DNA of 63,394 nucleotides, counting the filler, from Globobulimina sp. (lineage: Eukaryota), in NCBI GenBank assembly GCA_003354225.1. It is 43 parts of 43 records of this genome, joined end to end, with 100 filler letters (N's around TTAATTAATTAA, not from the genome) between each part and the next. Parts side by side here need not be neighbours in the genome. Positions count along the whole stretch, not along the records: positions 36,931 to 38,306 come from PIVH01017680.1; 42 more parts are not named here. The stretch is one strand, 5' to 3'. The notes below the pieces were generated by a model, which was not told where the DNA came from, did no database searches, and worked only from the letters and a program-made list of their open reading frames with translations. Made by a program: the position numbers and the translations under genes. Positions 8-60,225 of the stretch are shown here, one piece after another. Position 1 is the first letter of the stretch, and the number at the start of each line of letters is the position of its first letter.

Positions 8-361
8 TTAATATACCATCGGTAGTTTGGAAAGGGCACATAATCCATTTTGTGAGTGCCACAATTCACATAAAAAATCTATGGTTAAGTTATGCTCCCA
101 TTTTCTTAATTTTGATGCACTGTTTAAAGTCTGTAAATGTCCACGTGTTGTTTGTCTATTTTTACGAAGATAGGCGTTCTGGCACACTTTGCATTGCCAA
201 TCAAAACCATCCATTGATCTCCTGCTTAAATGATAACATGCTGTGGATTTAGTTTCTTTACAATTTGAACAATGTTTAATTCCATTAATATTTGCGGCCA
301 CATAAAACCTGCTCACATAAAATAAGCGATGATGTGGTAATCTTAGCCACTTACTGAACAT
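8..361 (-). CDS. Zn-finger/HNH-like endonuclease-family protein with presequence-like N-terminus, antisense within a formin intron; 3' end truncated or interrupted
   Basis: ATG at 361 gives MFSKWLRLPHHRLFYVSRF, then CSNC...CKVC, LTIDFLCELWHSQNGLCALSKLPM. Visibly homologous to the repeat unit of 37326..38306. Confidence 0.7.
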   Translation of the reverse strand: MFSKWLRLPHHRLFYVSRFYVAANINGIKHCSNCKETKSTACYHLSRRSMDGFDWQCKVCQNAYLRKNRQTTRGHLQTLNSASKLRKWEHNLTIDFLCELWHSQNGLCALSKLPMVY

Positions 362-405
362 TTTCAAATATTTTACCAAACAGCTGCATTTTTTGATATA
401 CACAG

Positions 406-1270
406 TTGGATAAATTCCCACGTCGTAGAAATGCGGATGGATCGGCAGTACCAACCATGTTAGAATATATATACACATTAATTCGCGATAAATATCCAGA
501 TTCATTATCATGGACAGATAATTTACAAATATTAAATCAAGCAATCACCATCGATCTAAGCGTAATTAATGCGAATCTGAAAAAATTTGAACAAAATATG
601 GGTTTATTACATGACAGAATACAAACATCTGACGAGAACCAACCCGGCGGCAAAAATTTTGTACATAAAATGTCGCCATTTTATAGCCAATCATGTAAAC
701 AGTTGGAAACCTTTACTAATTCTGTAAAAACATTAAACAAAGAACTAAAGAAATTGGGCGAATGGTTTGATGTCGAAGATAGTGACAATTTAGAATTCTT
801 AAAACAAATAAATGCATTCAGGAAAACATTTAAATCCATTGGACAAAGATTAGATAAAAGGAAAAAAGAAACAGAAAGAAAAGCAAAAAAAGAGAAAAAA
901 GCCCAATCGAAGCGTCAAGGAAAAGGAAGAGGGAAAAAAAGGAAAACGGGAACAGCAAAACCGATACAAATTGAAGTCTCAAATGACGGGCGTGATAGAA
1001 GAGGGACTATTTTGCGCGCTGTGTCTCAAAAACAACCGTTATTTATAATATATTATATATATATACTGTATATACAAACAAATATCTGTTATGTTTGCAT
1101 TTAGATTGTTGAATGCGACGAATAGTTTGGTGCCTGGTAGTTTGGTGCCGCAATGGTCCAAAGGAAGTGGAGGAAGAAGTAGAGTTCCGTCAGTAAGTAT
1201 GGGTGGAGGTGGATTGAAAATTGAATTGGCGAGATTTGCGTCTTATGTTGACTCAAAAATCAAAGTATAG
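406..1270 (+). CDS. Formin, C-terminal FH2 domain and tail (partial; intron 1038..1104)
   Basis: LDKFPRRRNADGSAVPTMLEYI resembles the FH2 L.KL.D.K..D...TLL.Y motif, followed by helical FH2 end (LGEWF...EFLKQINAFRKTF). Acceptor CACAG at 401-405. Splicing out 1038..1104 keeps the frame open to TAG at 1268-1270. Confidence 0.8.
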
Positions 1271-2567: not shown

Positions 2568-3042
2568 CGAATTCAACAAAATAAACGCTTTTCTTTTTGT
2601 CATTAATTTATTTAATTAATAATATCCTCACTCTCATTCTTTTCCGTTTTTGGTGCTTTATTTGGAGGACAATTAGTATCAACTTACAGAAGAAAGAAAA
2701 CTGTCGGGGAGTTGTTGAACATAACTGTTTTCTGTACAGTTTTCCCAACAAAACATGGCAATGATGTCATGGTCTTTTCATGTTTTGTTATTCTCAATGT
2801 TTAATATTCTGAATGGTAGATTCAAACTTGAGTCAAGAATAGTACATGGAATTGCGNNNNNNNNNNNNNNNNNNNNNNNNNNNNNNNNNNNNNNNNNNNN
2901 TTAATTAATTAANNNNNNNNNNNNNNNNNNNNNNNNNNNNNNNNNNNNNNNNNNNNTTTTCAATATTTCAATATCAACTTATAAAAGTTCAGTAAAATTT
3001 ATTTCTTGTTTATCATTGATAACTTGTATTGTATTTCTAATA

Positions 3043-4334
3043 ATGAGTGCACAAAAGAAAGGTGTGGTAACGCGTTCCTTGAATGCCTTAAAAACGGAAA
3101 TAAATCATCATGAAAATGATGCCCTTTTAGCCATTGAAGGGGATATACATTTATGCGATGTACCAACTACTCAAAATCATTTGCTAAAAGTGGGCAAAAA
3201 ACTTTCGTTACTTACGACCAAATTTAATAAATTAGAACTTGCTACGACCGAGTATGCAGTTGCTATCGAAGGAGATGTACCTAAAACTAATGAATTTGAA
3301 ACATTCCAAGATGACGAAGCTCCCTCATGGGCTAAAAGTAACGATTTAATTGCACGTTTTTCAATATTAAAGGAGCAACTTTCGGAGCATAAAAAAGATA
3401 AAATCGCCGAGTTAGAAATTCAAAATCAGTTAGCTCGCGATAATAACGATTTACGGCGTCAACTTGCAGCACAGCCCAATGTTGCAGCACTTCCGGTACA
3501 GGCAAATATCGGTCCACCCCCAGCAGTGCAAATAAATGCACCCCCTGTTACTACTTCCGTTCGTCTGTCAAAATTGGAAATTGCCAAATTTGATGGCAAT
3601 ATTTTAAAATGGAGCGAATTTTGGGATAGTTATGAAGCTTCAGTACATAAAAATGCTAATTTATCGAATGTTGAAAAATTTGCTTACTTACGGACAAAAT
3701 TATTAAGTACAGCTTTAGACGCAATTTCGGGTTTACAACTTTCAAATGATAACTATCCGGTCGCTCTGGAAATACTAAATTCTCGTTTTGGAAATAAGCA
3801 AAGAATTATTGATGCTCATTATATTAGTTTAACCGATTTGCCGACTTCTCCAAATCAAATTATTAAATTACGTACACTCTATGACAGCATGGAGAAGCAT
3901 TTTCGAAGTTTAGAAGCAGTCGGCGAAGAAGTTAACTCACAGCGTCAATTAGTATCTTTAGTTAAGACAAAATTACCGGAAGAAGTTATGCATCAATTAA
4001 ATATGCAAATCGATGACGACGAAAATTGGACTGTTGAAAAACTACGTAAACTTTTGGGAAGGTATATTCGTTCACGTGAATCAATAGTCCCAATACCTAC
4101 TACACCTAAAAATGCATCGGCTTCGAGTTATGATTATAACTCACAAAATCGATTTTCTCATAAACCTGATAATCGCGGTTTTTCTACTCCCAATTTTCGT
4201 AAACCTAATTCATTTGATTATTCCCGTCCTCGCAGTTTCCCATTTCCAAAACAATACACTGGTAGTGCATTAATGTCTGCCCAACCTAAAAGAAACTGCA
4301 TTTTTTGTGACAAATTGCACTGGTCTGACGAATG
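3043..4334 (+). mobile_element. BEL/Pao LTR retrotransposon gag (DUF1759), 3' truncated at the start of the Zn knuckle
   Basis: VRLSKLEIAKFDGNILKWSEFWDSYEASVHKN..LSNVEKFAYLR..L..A..AISGL..NY..A..IL..RFG and CIFCDKLHWSDEC; intronless. Confidence 0.9.
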
Positions 4335-5812: not shown

Positions 5813-5988
5813 NNNNNNNNNNNNNNNNNNNNNNNNNNNNNNNNNNNNNNNNNNNNTTAATTAATTAANNNNNNNNNNNNNNNNNNNNNNNNNNNNNNNN
5901 NNNNNNNNNNNNAAACAGAGAAACGGTAGTCCTGTGGCGAGATCGCAACAGTAGCTACCGTTTCCCGTGTTTCAATCTAACTGACGCC

Positions 5989-7290
5989 GAGTATTGGCGT
6001 TGCGCCATCAACGCGGGTCTGGATATCGACGATGTAGCTCCGAGGTTCAGTTTCTTTTGGGGAGTGAGCATGAACTTTTATATGGAAATCGCAAAGTTGC
6101 GCGCCGGCAGACGGATTTGGGCCAAGTTGATGAAGGAAAAGTTTGCGTGCAGCAATGAGAAATCGTTGTTGCTGAGGACTCACTGTCAGACATCCGGATG
6201 GTCGCTGACTGAGCAACAGCCGGTGAACAATGTGATTCGTACTACAATGGAAGCGTTGTCGGCGGTGTTTGGAGGCACTCAGTCGTTGCATACCAATGCT
6301 TATGACGAGGCCTTGGCGCTGCCGTCTGTGAGCAGTGCGAGAGTGGCGAGGAATACTCAGCTGATCATACAGAATGAAGCCAGCATCACCAATGTGATTG
6401 ATCCCTGGGCTGGTTCCTATTTAATGGAGCAGCTAACCGACGAAATGGAGGAGAAAGCGATGCTGATTATCAATGAAATTGAAGATGAGCATAAAGGCAT
6501 GACCCAGGCCATTGAGTGTGGAATGGCAAAACTAAGAATTGAAGAGGCGGCGGCAAAGAAGCAAGCGCGGATTGACAGTGGCAAGGACATTATTGTTGGA
6601 GTGAATAGATTTGAATTGGAGTCTGATGAAGTGGAAGAAACGGAAGTGCTGCAAATTGATAATACCGCAGTTCGAAGGGCACAAATTGAAAAGTTAAATA
6701 AAATTAAGCAAGAGAGAGATACTGAAAAATGTAAGAAAGCATTGCAAGATTTAGAGAATGCTGCAGTGGGAAATGGTAACTTATTGCAATGTGCAGTGAT
6801 AGCAGCAAAATATAGAGCCACTGTGGGTGAGATAAGCGATGCGATGGAGAATGTTTTCGGGAGATATACGCCGCAAATACGTGTAGTATCCGGCGCATAT
6901 CGGAAAGCTTACGGTGATCAGACAGAGATTGAAAGTATTATCAGCAAAGTGGATGAATTTGAAATAGATTTTGGTCGTAGACCAAGAATTTTAGTGGCAA
7001 AAATGGGTCAAGATGGACATGACCGTGGCGCCAAAGTTATTGCGTCGGGTTTTGCCGATTTAGGCTTTGATGTGGATGTTGGTCCACTATTTGCGACACC
7101 GAAAGAAGTGTCACAGCAAGCATTGGATTGTGATGTTCATGCAATTGGTGTATCTTCGCAAGCGGCTGGACACTTAACATTGATTCCAGAGTTAATGACT
7201 GAATTAAAGGCACAAAATGTTGACGATTTATCAAATGTTATTGTGGTGATTGGAGGTGTTATACCACCGCAAGATTATGATAAATTGAAA
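5989..7290 (+). CDS. MMUT: Methylmalonyl-CoA mutase, C-terminal two thirds (partial)
   Basis: [44 protein letters not shown] and the B12-binding motif [10 protein letters not shown]. Confidence 0.96.
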
Positions 7291-10373: not shown

Positions 10374-11527
10374 TCAAGAATAATAAATAATCACAATTCC
10401 GCTGCCACCATTGCCTCCCGATGCATCTGTCCAAGTTCCACCACCTCCTCCAGAACCAGAGTTATGTTTGGCATCAGCATATGATGATGCTTTGCCATGC
10501 CCATTTCCAGAAAAAGAACTGCTTCCGCCATGGCCACCAGTGTCCCCACTATTTCCATACGGATTATATGAACTTAATCCCATTGCACCTCTCGCATTTA
10601 TGTTACCCCCAATTGCCTCACCACCCATTCCTCCCCAATCGACTCTATCATTGTTTTGCGAGCTCCCTCCATACGCAATGCAATATGATCCAAATGATGA
10701 CGTTCCACCATTTTGATTGGAACTGCCTCCGTTTCCAACAGTTACAGGGATTTGTTCACTTGGTGTGACACTTATAATTCTTTCACAGTAACCACCAGCA
10801 CCGCCACCTCCTCCTGGACCAATCCCTGTATCTAATGGCGCACCGCCGGCTCCTCCACCTTGCACAACAACGCGAATAGATGCGGTGTTTTGTGGTACTG
10901 TGAAAGTGCCAGACGAGGTAAATATTTGCCAATTAATCGGATATGTAGCTAATGTAGGTGATGATGTTGGTGCTTTAGAAGGTGTTGGCGTTGGTACAGT
11001 TGTAGGTGATGGCGTTGGTGTTTTAGATGGATATTTCGACGGAGCTGTAGTTGGATTCTCAGTCGGTAATGTTGTTGGAGTTAAGGTGGGCGCCGATGTA
11101 GACACTGGAGCTGGCGTTGGACGCGTCGTCTTTTGTATTTTTATATTGGTTGCAAGTTATGATATTAATGGAAAAGTAAAGTTTAATACGGAACGTTGTG
11201 GAAGAAACAGTCAGGATCATTATTGGTATTATTATTGATTGCATACCAACAGCAACCTTGGTCTACGCATTGTGCCTCATTAATACCGTGATATCCACAA
11301 TCTACTTTGGCATCATTTGTGATATTGACCTCAGAACAATTGACAGTTGCTGGTACATGGACAGGTTTTGCTGGTACATGCAATGTAGGAGAAACAGATG
11401 GATTGGCTGTGTTTGGTGATTTTGTTGGAGAAGATGTTGTGTGACTGAATTGTAATACACGTTTTGTCATTGACTGACTGCTCTTATTTGCAATATGTAT
11501 CACATAACTTTGTGTTTGCATTCGCAT
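10374..11527 (-). CDS. Trefoil domain + PT repeats + C-terminal glycine-rich domain protein (intron 11130..11194); 5' part frameshifted
   Basis: Trefoil KVDCGYHGINEAQCVDQGCCWY...PDCFF. A phase-0 GT-AG intron joins it to a PT stalk, then FTSSGTFTVP...GGGGGAGGY...GNGGSGIVIIYY. Confidence 0.75.
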
Positions 11528-17732: not shown

Positions 17733-18177
17733 GTTCTCCATTATATCTTTGTTTATGTCGATACAATGCTAATACTTTGCTGTCACACCACTGATTTGTG
17801 CAACTTTTTATTTTCCCCACACCGTAATCCATAATAATTTTAGCTGTTTTTGAGGACAATCCTTTTGCTAAGAACTGCTGAAACAGTTGTTTGAAAATCA
17901 AGTAATCTGAGTTATGAATGCAATTTGAGGCAGTAATACCAAACATTGTGTTAAACGCATCCGTAATGTCCGTAATTTGTGGTTTGGATAATTTACGTTT
18001 TTTAAAATCGTTACAATGGATCTGACCATCTGATGTAATTAATATGCGGTTTATTTCTTGAATTAATCTTTTTTTGGTTCTTCCTTTTCCGGTTTGCTTA
18101 ATGAATTTAAAGACGGCATTTGATTTTAACATATTCCGCACTTCTTTCATGGAGCTGTCTGCTCTTAATTCATCCAT
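17733..18177 (-). CDS. Hypothetical protein, paralog A of an inverted pair (3' truncated)
   Basis: Shares MFGITASNCIHNSDYLIF...RYNGE with 18559..19109. Confidence 0.6.
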
Positions 18178-18558
18178 TGTGTTTGTTGCAAATATTGGGT
18201 TTAACCGGAGATAACTTCCATAATTTAATTGACATAATTACAGTGTTACATTGCAGCTGATCTAAAAACAAGTGTTTCTAACTCTAATTTCTTGTATTTC
18301 ACTGCAATACCACTTGAGAAAAACTGTGGACATTTAATAATGCATGGCACTGATGGCAGAACCAATAAAGGCATTTAAAATTGCTGTATTAATTGATTCA
18401 GTGGTTGTCAATCAGATTGATCATTTTCATGTTGGTTTTCTTCTTCTCGATCATTGCCGATTATGTAATAGAAATAGAAATTAATTCTTCCATATTTAGC
18501 AATCATTAACTATCTCTACAACAATTTCCATATCCACTCAGCGATAATTAAAAACCTA

Positions 18559-19109
18559 ATGGATTTCTCACAAAAACACCACATGTTTGGTATTACTGCC
18601 TCAAATTGCATTCATAACTCAGATTACTTGATTTTCAAACAACTGTTTCAGCAGTTCTTAGCAAAAGGATTGTCCTCAAACACAGCTAAAATTATTATGG
18701 ATTACGGTGTGGGGAAAATAAAAAGTTGCACAAATCAGTGGTGTGACAGTAAAGTATTAGCATTTTATCAACGTAAAGCAAGATATAATGGAGAACAACA
18801 TTATTGTCAAAGTTGTTTGAGTCAGAAACGGAAATGTACATATTTAATATATGAAAATGGACAAAAACAACAATGTAATAACAACATTTGGTGTACAACA
18901 AATAAGTTCAAATTATGTGAGGTTTGTGGGACGACATTGATATGTTCAAAACACTTTGATGACTTAATCAGATGTTCGACATGTGGCAGTATAGCATGTT
19001 GTAGTAATGACAAATGCGATTTTATTCATTGTGAAAGATGTGAAAGCTTACTTTGTAACAAATGTTTGCAATCTGCTGATGATTTATATGGTGGATATAA
19101 AAGATGCAA
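18559..19109 (+). CDS. Cys-rich (multiple CxxC) protein, paralog B of the inverted pair, lacking A's N-terminus
   Basis: CQSC, CEVC, CSTC, CERC, CNKC motifs; 214-bp near-identity to 17733..17946. Confidence 0.6.
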
Positions 19110-36932: not shown

Positions 36933-37112
36933 TTGGATTTAAATCAAGTGATACAATTGTTTGTGGACGCAAATAAGTCCATGTATAAATTACTCGGTTA
37001 TTCATTTACGAGATTTAAAGCAAAAAAAGATTTTGAACGATTGTGTGAGCGTTCATTTTCGAATGCGAGGTCTGGATCAACTCTACATAAATTGGGTAAT
37101 GTTGATGAATAA
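36933..37112 (+). CDS. C-terminus of an RGS-domain protein (not in the ORF track)
   Basis: IQLFVDANKSMYKLLGYSFTRFK, TAA at 37110-37112. Confidence 0.55.
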   Translation: MDLNQVIQLFVDANKSMYKLLGYSFTRFKAKKDFERLCERSFSNARSGSTLHKLGNVDE

Positions 37113-37325
37113 ATATCAGTTTTGTTTTGTGATTTTATGCTTTCAAAAATTGAATGTTTTATGCTGTGTGTCTTGCGTTGTGTAACCTTGTTTTGTTTAT
37201 TGTTTTCGATGCCATAGATCATTTTTTAATATGATTATACATTTTTTAATTGTCATGCGATTTGCAGTAATATTAAACCACACTTTTTGTGAAGGAGAGA
37301 GGTTTTTTGTAAAATTAAAGATATA

Positions 37326-38306
37326 ATGTTGTTTGGTAAAAGATGTACTTTGTTTTATGTTTCCAGGCGATTCTGTGCACTGTACAGATGTAGAAAATGC
37401 GAGCTTGATCAAACTGTTTCTGGATTTTACAAAAACAAAAGGACAAAATGCGGATTGGATATATCATGCTGCAAAAATTGCCGATATAAGAGAGTATGCA
37501 CTCCAATTGCGTATTTCCAGAAATTAATAGGTAATGCAAAATCAAATCAAAAAAAAAGATACCACAAAAAAGGCATTGATCCTCCAAACTTTACTTTGAC
37601 GTACCAATATTTACATGATATGTATCGCAAGCAAAATGGAATCGGATTTTATAGCGGTATACAATTAGAACTAAAACCATTATCTGACTGGCAAACATCT
37701 CTGGAACATATAGATCCTGGTTGTGATTATGTTGAGAGCAATGTTGTGTTGGATGCAATGGAGTTTAATGGTGCATGTCAATGGACCACAGACAAAATCA
37801 TGCAAATACCATCCTTAATTCACGCATCAAATAATATTGCATTAGCTGATGTCAATAAAGCCAGAATAAAACCATCACACAAAGGAGAGCAAAAGCGGAG
37901 AATAGCACAAATCCAAGACAATACATGTTACTGTTATGACTGTGAGACATGGATATCGTGCAACGAATTCTATGCAAGTCATCGGACGAGATGTAAAATA
38001 TGTTGTATTGTAAAGTCAAGCAGACACATAAAAACACTTCGCGAATTCATGATGAATCTGTTGTGTAATGCGGGCAAACATGCTAAAAGGCGACAATCTA
38101 CCAAGAAAGACATAAGGAATGAATTTACAATATCTTTAGATGATTTATTTGATATTTTAAAGGAACAAGAGTTTAGATGTAAATATTCTGGAATTCCGAT
38201 GACGTTTCAACCTAACACTCATTGGAAGTGTTCACTCGAAAGGTTAAATAATATGAAAGGTTATACTCGAGATAATTGTGTATTGATATGTTGGGAATTT
38301 AACTCA
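37326..38306 (+). CDS. Tandem Zn-finger/HNH-like endonuclease-family protein with presequence-like N-terminus (3' truncated)
   Basis: Two units of CxxC..CxxC + helix + Q..xxxSGI + W..SLE(H/R)(I/L)....Y...N.VL...EFN; intronless. Confidence 0.78.
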
Positions 38307-38406
38307 NNNNNNNNNNNNNNNNNNNNNNNNNNNNNNNNNNNNNNNNNNNNTTAATTAATTAANNNNNNNNNNNNNNNNNNNNNNNNNNNNNNNNNNNNNN
38401 NNNNNN

Positions 38407-51744: not shown

Positions 51745-52587
51745 ATGCGAGCGTTACGCAGAATCAGTGTAAAATCACGATTCCAACATGCATCATTATC
51801 ACAAGCAACAGCTAGCGCAACAAAAAATGTGTTATCTTCAGATAAATGTGTAACAAATTCAATTATAACAAGAGCAGATGATGACAATAAAGATAAGATA
51901 ATGAAGAAATCGACGCTGACCTTTGCAACAGTCTTAGCAGCCGCAGCCTTAACACCCGCAGGCTATGCAATACCACCACTCGGTGTAACAATATTATCTA
52001 ATTTGCCGTTAGCAGCATTCGCCTTTGTTCAGGCATCCGGTATATCGCCACTTAGACAAATATTAAAGGATAAAGGCACCGGCGATTTAAGTCCATTTCC
52101 CTTCGTGTCGTTATATACTAATTGTGGAGTATGGTCGTTGTATGGTGTATTGCAACAGGACCAAACCTTAATAGTTGCAAATTTCGCAGGATTTATAGCT
52201 GGAGCAGCATATACTGGAATGTTTGCAAAATATACGGATCAATCCATGATGAAATTTTATGCTGGTTCTGGTGCGGTGTTAGGCATATTTTTGTCATCGC
52301 CGATGTGGGCTCCAATGGTAGGGACTGATGCTGTGACTGTTTTAGGTACATTTGGTATGACCACTGCTGTTGTACTGATGGCCTCACCTTTGGCTGTGGT
52401 CGGAACTGTAATAAGACAAAAATCAACCGCAGCATTGCCATTTCCTGTATCGCTCGCAATGACATTAAATGGATTTTGTTGGGGTGGCTATGGATGGTTT
52501 GTAACAAATGATTTCTATGTTTATGTTCCAAACGTATTGGGATGTGCGGCGGGATGTGCTCAGTTGGCACTGTTTGCTATTTATTAA
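51745..52587 (+). CDS. SWEET (MtN3/saliva) sugar transporter with N-terminal extension
   Basis: GTGDLSPFPFVSLYTNCGVWSLYG, MASPLAVVGTVIRQKSTAALPFP, DFYVYVPNVLG...QLAL. Confidence 0.92.
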   Translation: MRALRRISVKSRFQHASLSQATASATKNVLSSDKCVTNSIITRADDDNKDKIMKKSTLTFATVLAAAALTPAGYAIPPLGVTILSNLPLAAFAFVQASGISPLRQILKDKGTGDLSPFPFVSLYTNCGVWSLYGVLQQDQTLIVANFAGFIAGAAYTGMFAKYTDQSMMKFYAGSGAVLGIFLSSPMWAPMVGTDAVTVLGTFGMTTAVVLMASPLAVVGTVIRQKSTAALPFPVSLAMTLNGFCWGGYGWFVTNDFYVYVPNVLGCAAGCAQLALFAIY

Positions 52588-54819: not shown

Positions 54820-56018
54820 TCAATAGTTGGGTGCATGATAATCATCGGGTTTCTGAGCCCGGTATGCAGTCAATTCGCTATATTGGTGTTGGACTTCATC
54901 TTGTTCTATTTCTGAATTACCTTTCGTTTGTGTACTTGCATTTCTCTGATCTTGTTTTTTCTTTCGATAATGTCCATTTTTGGCACTATTCTTGATCTGC
55001 TTAATATGATGTAAATCTCGAGGTGACAAATGATCGGCTTCGTCTTCACTGTCTTGTGCATTCTGTTGAAGTCCTGACATCTCAGGCCATGCTGCTGCAT
55101 AACTGGCAGATGTGCATTTAGCACGTGATCGTCCCAATGGGTGCTTTTGTCCATACATGTCAATAGTTGATTCCATAAAATCAAATCCGACTTTGTGGCG
55201 TTGCAGAAAATCTACACCCAAAATAACCAATGGTAAATGAGGGTCATCTGGCACAACATGTACTGTTTGTTCAAATACCGTATCGCCGATAGTAAAAGAC
55301 ATGACGACTTTACCCAAAATATCAATTGAACCCCCAAAACCGGCCATTTTATTGTGATGACAACTACGCAATTTGGACATGGGAACGCGAGCAATTTTGC
55401 AAACTGATTTTTGTGCAATGGTAAGCCTTGAGCCAGTGTCGGCTAATGCGGCTAATTTGCATACTGGAGCGCGCTGTCGCAATAAATAAAGGGCTAATTC
55501 CATAGGTTGTAATACCATAACGGAATTAGGGTCAACTTCACCCTTAGGCGAAGCAGTCAACACAGTTGCATTCATAGTATCCTTATCCAACCGATTCGGC
55601 CGGACTGCACATAACTCTGGCACTGGGGAAACAAGCTTATTGGTCACCCAATCATCATTGATAGACTCAACCGACTCAGGTAATAAAGGTTGTTTGTCGG
55701 TCATTTTGGTGTGACATGACCCAAAATTATCATTTGCCAATTTAGGCATACCCGGTTCTACTTTAGGTGTTTCCATAAACTCTTTCTCGAGTTTTGCCAC
55801 CATTACATTATAACTATTTATTTGTAATTGACTCATTCTTAATGCTAAATCAGTTTTACGTTTTTCATACCTCTCTTCCTGTTGTTGTCCTTTCTCGCTC
55901 CAATGAGTCCATATGTCATAATCAGTCTTCAGTTCGGGATAATCCGCAGTTGGTACCAAATTAGGTACGAATGTTGGTAAATTGTCCCAATTATCGATTG
56001 GATATGATCTTCCTGTCT
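54820..56018 (-). mobile_element. Retropepsin (Ty3/Gypsy-like aspartic protease) ORF ending without reverse transcriptase
   Basis: AALADTGSRLTI and VILGVDFLQRH; stop at 54820 followed by AT-rich DNA. Confidence 0.78.
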
Positions 56019-59069: not shown

Positions 59070-60225
59070 AACAGATGTATTCTGCCATATTGCTGTGGAA
59101 GCAGGCACAATTACACCTGCAATGACCCCAAAGATAAAAAAACTTGCAGCTAAACAAGACAAACCTGCTGGAAGTGAAGCGACGTAAGATTTGATTGAAG
59201 TGTTTCTTCTCTTGTGAATCTTCTCTATTTTACCTTTTTAGTGTCAATACACATGGAAGTGTCTCAGATGTAAATTCGCCCAGGTCGGCTCATGGTGTTG
59301 GTCTTCCTGAAGATCATGTGGGATCATCGGATAGATTCTTCCAAGACCTTGAAGAAGGAGATAAAGCTCGTCAGGAGTAAGTGGATATTCTGGAATAAAT
59401 AACCCTTTCTTAGTGCAATCAGATGGGTATTCTAGAATAACCAAAAGTCGATGCAACCAGTCATTGTTTAGTCATTGGCTATTTGCAACTGGATGCAGTT
59501 GTAACATCTATTGGTTGCCTCCAACTTGGTGGCTAATACCGTATATCGCAAGAACTGTTAGCTAGGAATAGGTTATTCTACTTGTTATGTGTGCTATGGA
59601 TCTAGCTACGGTATTTAGTATTCTAGAATAACCAAAAGTCGATGCAACCAGTTATTGTTTTGTCATTGGCTGTTTGCAACTGGATGCAGTAGTAACACAT
59701 CTATTGTTGCCACCAACTGGATGGTTTATACCATATTATCGCAACAACTGTTAACTAAGAATTGGTTACTGTACTTGTTACATCTGCTATAAGTCTAGCT
59801 ACGGTTTTGGGTATTCTAGAATAACCAAAAGTCGATGCAACCAGTCATTGTTTAGTAGTCATTGGCTGTTTGCAACTGGATGCAGTAGTTACACATCTAT
59901 TGTTGCCACCAACTGGATGGTTTATACCGTATTATCGCAAAACCTGTTAGCTAGGAATAGGTTACTGTACTTGTTACATGTGCTATAAAACTAGCTACGG
60001 TATTGGGTATTCTAGAATAACCAAAAGTCGATGCAACCAGTCATTGTTTAGTAGTCATTGGCTGTTTTGCAACTGGATGCGGTAGGCTGAAATTGTATTG
60101 TTGGCAATTTATTGGTATTCTGTATTCTGGCTGGAATCAGTGTGATATGGTGTGAATCCATCACTTTCTTTTGCAGGAATGAGCGTCTAAAGGCTGAATT
60201 GGTTGCTCAACAGCAATTGGTCACT
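59070..60225 (+). CDS. Eukaryotic hypothetical gene, three exons (introns 59184..59241 and 59377..60176)
   Basis: Splicing gives ...PAGSEATVNTHGS...GDKARQENERLKAELVAQQQLV with GTAAG donors and pyrimidine-rich AG acceptors. Confidence 0.6.
59427..60081 (+). repeat. Intronic tandem repeat, ~191-196-bp unit x3.4
   Basis: GTATTCTAGAATAACCAAAAGTCGATGCAACCAG at 59427, 59618, 59811 and 60007. Confidence 0.92.

Follow-up and report, generated by a model that had tools for sequence, protein, structure and literature searches.

An open reading frame (ORF) at 37326..38306 (+) of a 63,394-nucleotide (nt) stretch of DNA, hereafter the window, encodes a protein (P0001) of two diverged tandem units, each consisting of a Cys4 zinc ribbon, a helical linker and a beta-beta-alpha-metal site with the conserved residues of the type seen in the restriction endonuclease PacI. 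The window was taken from genome assembly GCA_003354225.1 (Globobulimina sp.) and consists of 43 fragments of 1375-1378 nt each; the ORF lies on the 1376-nt fragment from record PIVH01017680.1. P0001 is tentatively read, at a little under an even chance, as encoded in the nucleus of a foraminifer-like eukaryote and as being a single-chain, two-unit PacI-type endonuclease whose N-terminal leader would serve as a mitochondrial presequence and which would cut mitochondrial DNA. The fragments are separated by spacers of the form N44-TTAATTAATTAA-N44 (42 junctions, for instance 38307..38406), an artificial all-frame stop linker and not biology.

The frame of the ORF is open from 37293, and 37326 is the first ATG after an in-frame stop. 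Because the codons run into the spacer at 38307, the ORF of 327 codons is 3'-truncated; homologues extend approximately 35-55 residues further, with a conserved tail G-S-x-Q-W-S-x-E-K-F. The features of P0001 and of a second, divergent family copy in the window are given below, with conservation taken from an alignment of 46 family sequences.

37326..37373, plus strand: N-terminal leader (MLFGKRCTLFYVSRRF, residues 1-16) that lacks acidic residues and has 3 Arg and 1 Lys, LFYVSR at 37350..37367; putative mitochondrial presequence, with an R-R-F motif directly before the folded part
37389..37481, plus strand: zinc ribbon of unit 1 (C22, C25 ... C49, C52), with C22, C25 and C52 invariant and C49 nearly so
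37632..37769, plus strand: nuclease core of unit 1 (Q103-N148), with YSGI, W..SLEH, GY (Y135), N139 and E146-F-N148
37932..38003, plus strand: zinc ribbon of unit 2 (C203, C206, C223, C226), all Cys invariant; aligns with PacI chain residues 2-48
38166..38306, plus strand: nuclease core of unit 2 (Q281-N326), with C285, YSGI, W300, S303-L-E305-R306, Y313, N317 and E324-F-N326
8..361, minus strand: copy 2, divergent, with leader, zinc ribbon and helices only, ending at TAA (8-10); family profile hidden Markov model (HMM) E 1.3e-14, profile positions 6-107 of 356

The internal duplication was found between residues 22-148 and 203-326, which are 30% identical over 127 amino acids (aa) with an E value of 8e-17 (pairwise search, composition statistics off). 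Both units carry CxxC...CxxC, followed by Q..G..YSGI, W..SLE(R/H) and GY...N..L...EFN. In the family alignment C22, C25, C52, Q103, S125, E127, Y135, N139 and E146 of unit 1 and C203, C206, C223, C226, Q281, W300, S303, E305 and R306 of unit 2 are invariant, and the residues of the two sites (E127, Y135, N148 and E305, Y313, N326) are invariant or at least 90% conserved. The AlphaFold2 (AF2) model of the whole ORF was obtained with a predicted local distance difference test (pLDDT) of 92.0 and a predicted template modelling score (pTM) of 0.80, the latter suggesting that the two units hold a defined mutual arrangement; unit 2 modelled alone had a pLDDT of 90.7. Strands were predicted at 123-128 and 140-144 in unit 1 and at 301-306 and 318-322 in unit 2, each pair being followed by a helix.

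A profile of the 46 homologues was searched against PDB sequences using hmmsearch, and the best match was PacI (3ldy, E 4.9e-5) in two colinear stretches. The first aligned the CxxC...CxxC ribbon of unit 2 with PacI residues 2-48, and the second aligned l-E-R-l-d...g-Y...N..L.c.E-F-N with PacI 91-116 (V-D-R-S-D...G-Y...N..L.C..C-N), placing D92, R93, Y100, N104 and N113 of PacI against E, R, Y, N and N of the unit 2 core. Across both units, E127/E305 on strand 1 and N148/N326 on the core helix align with the acidic ligand D92 and the metal-ligand Asn N113, and the loop G-Y residues Y135 (invariant) and Y313 (at least 90% conserved) align with Y100. The catalytic His at the end of strand 1 is absent, S-L-E-R/H standing there, and no conserved His was found at this place in the 46-sequence alignment. 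PacI and its group are described as lacking this His, and PacI as using a Tyr in the inter-strand loop (PMC5714182, in the passage on PacI), as binding one metal through Asp and Asn (PMC4081073, in the part that deals with PacI), and as a homodimer with two zinc ions and one motif per subunit (PMC3384342, likewise). Y100 is taken to be the catalytic Tyr of PacI because that Tyr is, in the wording of that passage of PMC5714182, "located in the omega-loop". Of the second Cys4 site of PacI, only C285 and the Cys of L-I-C are widely kept, and PacI C112 aligns with Phe.

The likeness to R.PacI (PDB 3LDY/3M7K) extends from an N-terminal CxxC...CxxC ribbon to a beta-beta-alpha-metal core that lacks the catalytic His, with D/E-R, the loop G-Y and N...N aligning residue for residue. 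PacI differs in being a single unit of 142 aa that acts as a homodimer (PMC3384342, as excerpted), whereas P0001 has two diverged units in one chain; the metal-ligand Asp of PacI is Glu in P0001, no clear counterpart of the second PacI zinc site is kept, and P0001 has an N-terminal leader and a eukaryotic host. The similarity is remote, being detected by profile and not by single sequence (phmmer of P0001 against PDB sequences, 0 matches). Nothing above noise was found with Pfam for the two family proteins of the window, no NUMOD or other extra domain was found with Pfam in P0001, and the NCBIfam search of four proteins returned 0 families. The Stc1 domain (PF12898) was considered and set aside, with no match to P0001, matches of 18-23 bits in 3 of 30 relatives (below the Pfam cut-off of 24.8) and an E value of 0.11 between the profile of 46 homologues and the Stc1 structure 2luy.

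Structure searches against the PDB were done using Foldseek. With the unit 2 model, PacI was found at rank 3 over 140 columns, i.e., the whole PacI chain (probability 0.93, E 1.4e-2); the full-length model gave weak matches only (best E 5e-3, an axonemal chain), with PacI at rank 11. Most of the other PDB matches were HNH domains, namely those of Cas9, ScoMcrA, McrA (EcoKMcrA), Gme and Cap5. The best matches of both AF2 models were 8j07_c2 and 9fqr_Ij, chains of 520-631 aa from the human or bovine axonemal 96-nm repeat, matched over approximately 133 columns with probability 0.98-1.00 and E 4e-3 to 1.5e-2; the axonemal protein may hold an HNH- or zinc-ribbon-like module, which would be worth attention in its own right.

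In the PHROGs collection the matches were phrog_1035 "endonuclease VII" (2.2e-23), phrog_3322 "endonuclease" (2.1e-19) and phrog_3118 "HNH endonuclease" (9e-19), and the HNH and endonuclease families match in the unit 2 core, after which the ORF leaves the fragment. Together with the T4 Srd-type phrog_1400 and phrog_4592, these phage families have the zinc ribbon and the S-L-D/E-R...GY...N...N core in common with P0001 (E 2e-23 to 2e-12); they differ in being single units from bacterial viruses. By tblastn, single units were found in nine phage records annotated as HNH endonuclease, endonuclease or NUMOD1 protein. The PacI profile match, the PHROGs matches and the structure comparison support the reading of each unit as a PacI-type nuclease module of the HNH (beta-beta-alpha-metal) kind that includes a zinc ribbon.

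The Srd-type matches also bear on a very unlikely alternative, in which P0001 would bind DNA, RNA or a partner protein without cutting, as a regulatory or nucleic-acid-binding protein whose HNH scaffold has degenerated and lost catalysis, in the manner of T4 Srd or SMAD MH1. The missing catalytic His would fit such a protein, as would the matches of unit 2 to the PHROG families "Srd anti-sigma factor" (2e-12) and "decoy of host sigma70" (7e-13), T4 Srd being reported to stimulate RNase E and to act through it, not as a DNase (PMC7430671, as excerpted). Against it, both units keep the equivalents of the PacI ligands and of the loop Tyr with no or almost no variation across the 46 sequences, and PacI is active despite lacking the His (PMC5714182 and PMC4081073, in the same parts as above).

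The family is large: 1759 representative members pass E<=1e-3 and 126 pass E<=1e-30, most having both units. The closest sequence relatives are 59%, 52% and 51% identical to P0001 and include entries of a eukaryote protein set; no relatives of >59% identity were found in two protein libraries. A structure search of the viral models in BFVD gave 86 matches at E<=1e-3, with giant-virus proteins first and both units covered. The best match was Yasminevirus A0A5K0U6L6 (1.7e-25, TMq 0.74, 326 columns, 28% identity), then Edafosvirus A0A3G4ZVL9 (1.9e-22), with further matches in Fadolivirus, Pithovirus (LCPAC), Klosneuvirus and Pandoravirus. These two-unit proteins resemble P0001 over its full length, and some are annotated "HNH endonuclease" or "Zn-finger protein"; they differ in being viral and uncharacterised. 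A language-model search likewise pointed to viral clusters, and giant-virus and phage proteins are supported as the nearest structural relatives. A scan of bacterial and archaeal genomes with the alignment of close relatives gave 24 pattern matches, of which 0 were confirmed. NUMOD1, NUMOD4 or I-HmuI NUMOD-like modules are fused in 3 of 30 scanned relatives. Some family members carry N-terminal NUMOD1, NUMOD4 or C2H2 modules, and P0012 (852 aa) and P0017 (827 aa) exemplify members with three or four units per chain.

In an unrooted tree of 92 two-unit relatives, the eight rows nearest P0001 form one clade (SH-aLRT 94). The domain family is already known as the PacI group ("group 20" of Jablonska et al. 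2017) of the His-Me finger superfamily, for which 78 giant-virus, 4 bacterial and 6 eukaryotic sequences are given in the relevant part of PMC5714182; the tandem, leader-bearing eukaryotic clade appears to be new. No description of this clade was found in the literature searched, a set outside which most subscription journals lie, and neither "Reticulomyxa" nor "Foraminifera" occurs in the supplement of PMC5714182. In a first-pass annotation, made from the sequence alone, the two homologous units, the likeness to beta-beta-alpha-Me nucleases and the resemblance to phage and giant-virus nucleases had been pointed out; all three hold, the signature it quoted being present in both units and the nuclease likeness, supported by the profile match, the PHROG HNH families and the AF2 strand-strand-helix arrangement, now being narrowed to the PacI type. 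Its description of the family as virus-derived is not supported, since the unrooted tree gives no direction of transfer between virus and host.

For the second copy, the family HMM was run over 1302 six-frame ORFs of the window, and exactly two matches were obtained, 37293..38306 (E 7.7e-111) and 11..544 (-) (E 1.3e-14). Copy 2 is approximately 27% identical to the main ORF. Its start was set at the ATG at 361 by likeness, and in-frame ATGs lie upstream in the same open frame at 511, 505 and 478. The stop TAA (8-10) stands opposite a CAA (Gln) codon of the main ORF, 7 bases from the fragment end and ahead of the nuclease core; copy 2 may represent a pseudogene or a nonsense allele, or the stop may stem from an assembly error. 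A ciliate-type code with TAA as a sense codon was ruled out, the 327-codon ORF and several fragment-spanning ORFs being open under the standard code.

Copy 2 adjoins an ORF at 397..1101 (+) on the same 1378-nt fragment, whose match to the formin FH2 domain does not begin until profile position 244 of 372; the FH2 exon is preceded by an acceptor-like site at 405/406 (...tttttgatatacacag followed directly by TTGGAT). Copy 2 is antisense to this exon and lies just upstream of it, at 45 nt. Because the FH2 match starts at 244 of 372 and is preceded by the acceptor-like site, copy 2 seems to lie antisense in a formin intron, and this ties the family to the nuclear genome; a decaying mobile gene might also have this appearance. 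The host lineage is probably a foraminifer or a close relative, judged from the single methylmalonyl-CoA mutase gene on the fragment at 5914..7290, for which the top match is 81% identical and the closest named entries are from Ammonia sp. (78%) and Sorites sp. (66%), with other eukaryotes at <=66%.

The fragment carrying the main ORF could also be giant-virus DNA that entered as contamination or was inserted recently, in which case the ORF would not be a functioning gene of the host; this explanation is given the least weight of all and is scarcely probable. The best structural matches are giant-virus proteins of the same two-unit layout, and no recognisable host gene lies beside the main ORF on its fragment, the 59-aa ORF end upstream (36933..37109) being without a Pfam match. 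On the other side, the eukaryote protein set entries are among the closest relatives, the clade has a leader of its own that is absent from most other relatives, a paralogue is linked to the formin exon, and the G+C of the fragment (0.33) is similar to that of the other fragments (mean of the window approximately 0.31).

The residues before the first zinc ligand number 21 in P0001 and 30 in copy 2, and both leaders are acid-free with 3 Arg and 1 Lys. LFYVSR is common to both (37350..37367 (+) and 325..308 (-)), with codons that differ at three of the six positions (TTG/TTA, GTT/GTG and TCC/AGC); a shared 6-mer was seen in only 8 of 200,000 shuffles of the two leaders. The DNA flanking the two leaders is dissimilar save for a 12-nt exact match, TGTTTGGTAAAA, at 37330-37341 and 382-371. 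Recent DNA copying was ruled out as the source of the leader identity, as this match is the sole one in the 5' DNA and is out of frame in copy 2. In the main ORF the 12 nt form part of the first codons (M-L-F-G-K), and in copy 2 they lie just upstream of the ATG in another frame, reading M-Q-L-F-G-K; they could be a relic of an older start with a frameshift, or chance (E 0.019, tiny search).

Among relatives, all eight of the nearest clade members carry a leader, with 16-42 aa before the first Cys and 0-2 acidic residues. Most others begin at the zinc ribbon. Of the 92 tree rows, 34 start <15 aa before the first Cys, and 94 proteins across the family begin with the first ribbon. In the alignment of close relatives, the majority residue approximately 9 positions ahead of the first Cys is Arg, with F/Y next and C/S/A after it. 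Presequence processing sites have Arg at -2 or -3. The conserved Arg pattern resembles such sites, and processing near it would give a mature end like that of the leaderless relatives. The "R-10"/octapeptide processing motif fits copy 2 by eye (R-L-F-Y-V-S-R-F-Y-V) and neither P0001 nor most clade members, and was dropped as a general explanation.

A crude, home-made presequence criterion was applied, namely no D/E and at least 3 K/R within the first 20 aa (P0001: +4/-0). Such N-termini were found in 69 of 99 full-length mitochondrial mutase precursors used as positive controls, in 5 of 8 clade members and in 5 of 82 other family rows, 3 of these 5 belonging to a neighbouring group with long extensions in the same 95-supported set of 14 rows. 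They were also found in 4 of 28 window ORFs, including P0001 itself and one antisense ORF. Taken together, the leader is a clade-specific, basic and acid-poor extension that is consistent with a mitochondrial presequence, the evidence being suggestive and not decisive.

The first-pass annotation had treated 8..361 as encoding the same unit as the main ORF. Copy 2 is a true family member, and the statement is partly true, because the copy ends at TAA before the nuclease core and so retains only the zinc ribbon and helices. The arginine-rich, acid-free leaders with an identical LFYVSR were correctly described. Their likeness to mitochondrial presequences is borne out in part, by the restriction to one clade, the basic and acid-poor composition and the Arg approximately 9 residues before the first Cys, but conservation of LFYVSR is unusual for a plain presequence. 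The count of two hits in 43 fragments was right, but the fragments need not be a random sample. The suggestion of an expanded, high-copy family drawn from it finds no footing in two very divergent copies in the window and no relatives above the 59% level in the two libraries.

P0001 may instead be the same tandem PacI-type nuclease acting in the nucleus or cytoplasm, for example as a selfish free-standing endonuclease or as a nuclease against foreign or viral DNA, with the basic N-terminus being part of the mature protein (a DNA-binding arm or an interaction motif). This is considered possible but rather doubtful. It would account for the homing-endonuclease DNA-binding modules in 3 of 30 scanned relatives and the NUMOD1 annotation in Vibrio phages, for the antisense position of copy 2 in an apparent formin intron with a premature stop, as in decaying mobile genes, and for a conservation of LFYVSR that exceeds the need of import alone; the pLDDT at residues 11-20 (75, with 51 at residues 1-10) points the same way. 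It sits less well with the restriction of an acid-free, Arg-rich extension to a single clade, most other relatives having the zinc ribbon at their start, and with the lack of a NUMOD or other extra domain in P0001 itself.

Several points weigh against P0001 as a mitochondrial nuclease. For targeting, the home-made criterion fails to pick up 3 of 8 clade members and accepts 11-14% of background ORFs, the modelled segment at residues 11-20 could belong to the functional mature protein, and an identical hexapeptide with a recurrent R-F-C before the ribbon, shared between paralogues of approximately 27% identity, is above ordinary presequence conservation. For nuclease function, the near-invariant Arg is replaced by His in unit 1 (H128), the second PacI zinc site is not evidently conserved in the family, the PHROG Srd-type "anti-sigma" families also match (2e-12) and the known Srd action is not DNA cleavage, and no PDB match of the full-length or unit 2 model reached E<=1e-3 in Foldseek, the top two being axonemal chains and not nucleases. 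The gene is cut off at the fragment end, and both the nuclease activity and the targeting of this clade are putative.

If P0001 is nevertheless a presequence-bearing nuclease, a mechanism can be proposed by analogy with PacI. Glu (E127/E305) and Asn (N148/N326) occupy the places of the PacI metal ligands Asp and Asn, and the loop Tyr (Y135/Y313) occupies the place of the PacI Tyr that replaces the usual catalytic His, so that each unit would form an active nuclease site that holds one metal and uses Tyr as base or nucleophile. Because PacI is a homodimer with one site per subunit, the fused units would be expected to act as a pseudo-dimer standing in for the homodimer, one chain cutting both strands, possibly at an asymmetric site. 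The Arg-rich, acid-free leader of 16-20 aa would be the presequence, and its cleavage close to the conserved R-(R)-F would place the mature N-terminus a few residues ahead of the zinc ribbon, as in the leaderless relatives. Once mature, the enzyme would introduce double-strand breaks into mitochondrial DNA, and these would serve recombination, rearrangement or the clearance of DNA.

Parts of this proposal have parallels in known systems. EndoG/Nuc1 is a nuclear-encoded His-Me finger nuclease of eukaryotes that is imported into mitochondria by an N-terminal presequence, as proposed for P0001; unlike P0001, it has a DRGH motif and a catalytic His, is of the Serratia-nuclease type, cuts without sugar specificity, lacks the zinc ribbon and is not tandem. 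The step from dimer to tandem pseudo-dimer, with halves free to read an asymmetric site, is seen by analogy between homodimeric and single-chain LAGLIDADG homing endonucleases, which have an unrelated fold and whose genes lie in introns or inteins, often of organelle genomes. Plant MSH1 and octocoral mtMutS are likewise organelle DNA-maintenance proteins with an endonuclease domain and giant-virus relatives, but they are MutS-based repair proteins with HNH or GIY-YIG appendages, neither PacI-type nor tandem nucleases (PMC3166940, PMC8438181 and PMC11275761, in the portions concerned).

Elsewhere in the window, long ORFs are open under the standard code in many fragments, fragment-versus-fragment comparison revealed near-zero DNA sharing, and an Rfam scan of the whole window gave 0 matches. 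The spacer by chance contains the PacI recognition site TTAATTAA. Head-to-head ORFs at 17734..18237 (-) and 18478..19107 (+) on one fragment have a 71-aa stretch in common at 93% identity and represent an inverted gene duplication; the latter ORF extends into a Cys-rich region and is without a Pfam match. The pair 2959..4332 (+) and 54823..56016 (-) is retroelement-derived, with one ORF being DUF1759 Gag-like (3e-31) and the other matching a gag-linked aspartyl protease weakly, below the cut-off (4.5e-4). A SWEET/MtN3-type transporter (51745..52584 (+), 1.3e-34) has a long N-terminal extension, starting MRALRRISVKSRFQHASLSQ, which also passes the crude presequence criterion used for the nuclease. 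The remaining features are a Thr/Pro-rich protein with a C-terminal Gly_rich_2 domain (10377..11156 (-), 4e-16) and a coding-like tandem repeat with a unit of approximately 190 nt (59365..60152 (+)), confined to one fragment, whose ORF pieces are mutually 55-96% identical.

In its widest form, which is offered as a speculation and thought unlikely, the proposal is that Foraminifera or their relatives acquired a restriction-enzyme-like nuclease of PacI type, shared with giant viruses, that this nuclease became a single-chain pseudo-dimer by fusion and gained a presequence, and that it is now encoded in the nucleus and cuts mitochondrial DNA at specific sequences. The host would thereby control a source of the double-strand breaks that underlie the reduced and rearranged mitochondrial genomes of the group. 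The interest of the finding depends on the putative mitochondrial targeting; if the leader is not a presequence, what remains is a viral nuclease family with a new branch in eukaryotes. If site-specific cutting by a single chain is correct, the protein would be a compact new scaffold of approximately 370 aa for asymmetric DNA recognition. To our knowledge, PacI-type nucleases are represented by one studied bacterial enzyme and by unstudied giant-virus genes. A tandem, presequence-bearing eukaryotic clade would, if the reading is right, add one more to the short list of organelle DNA-maintenance factors with giant-virus relatives and would provide the first indication that the PacI-type family has a cellular role.

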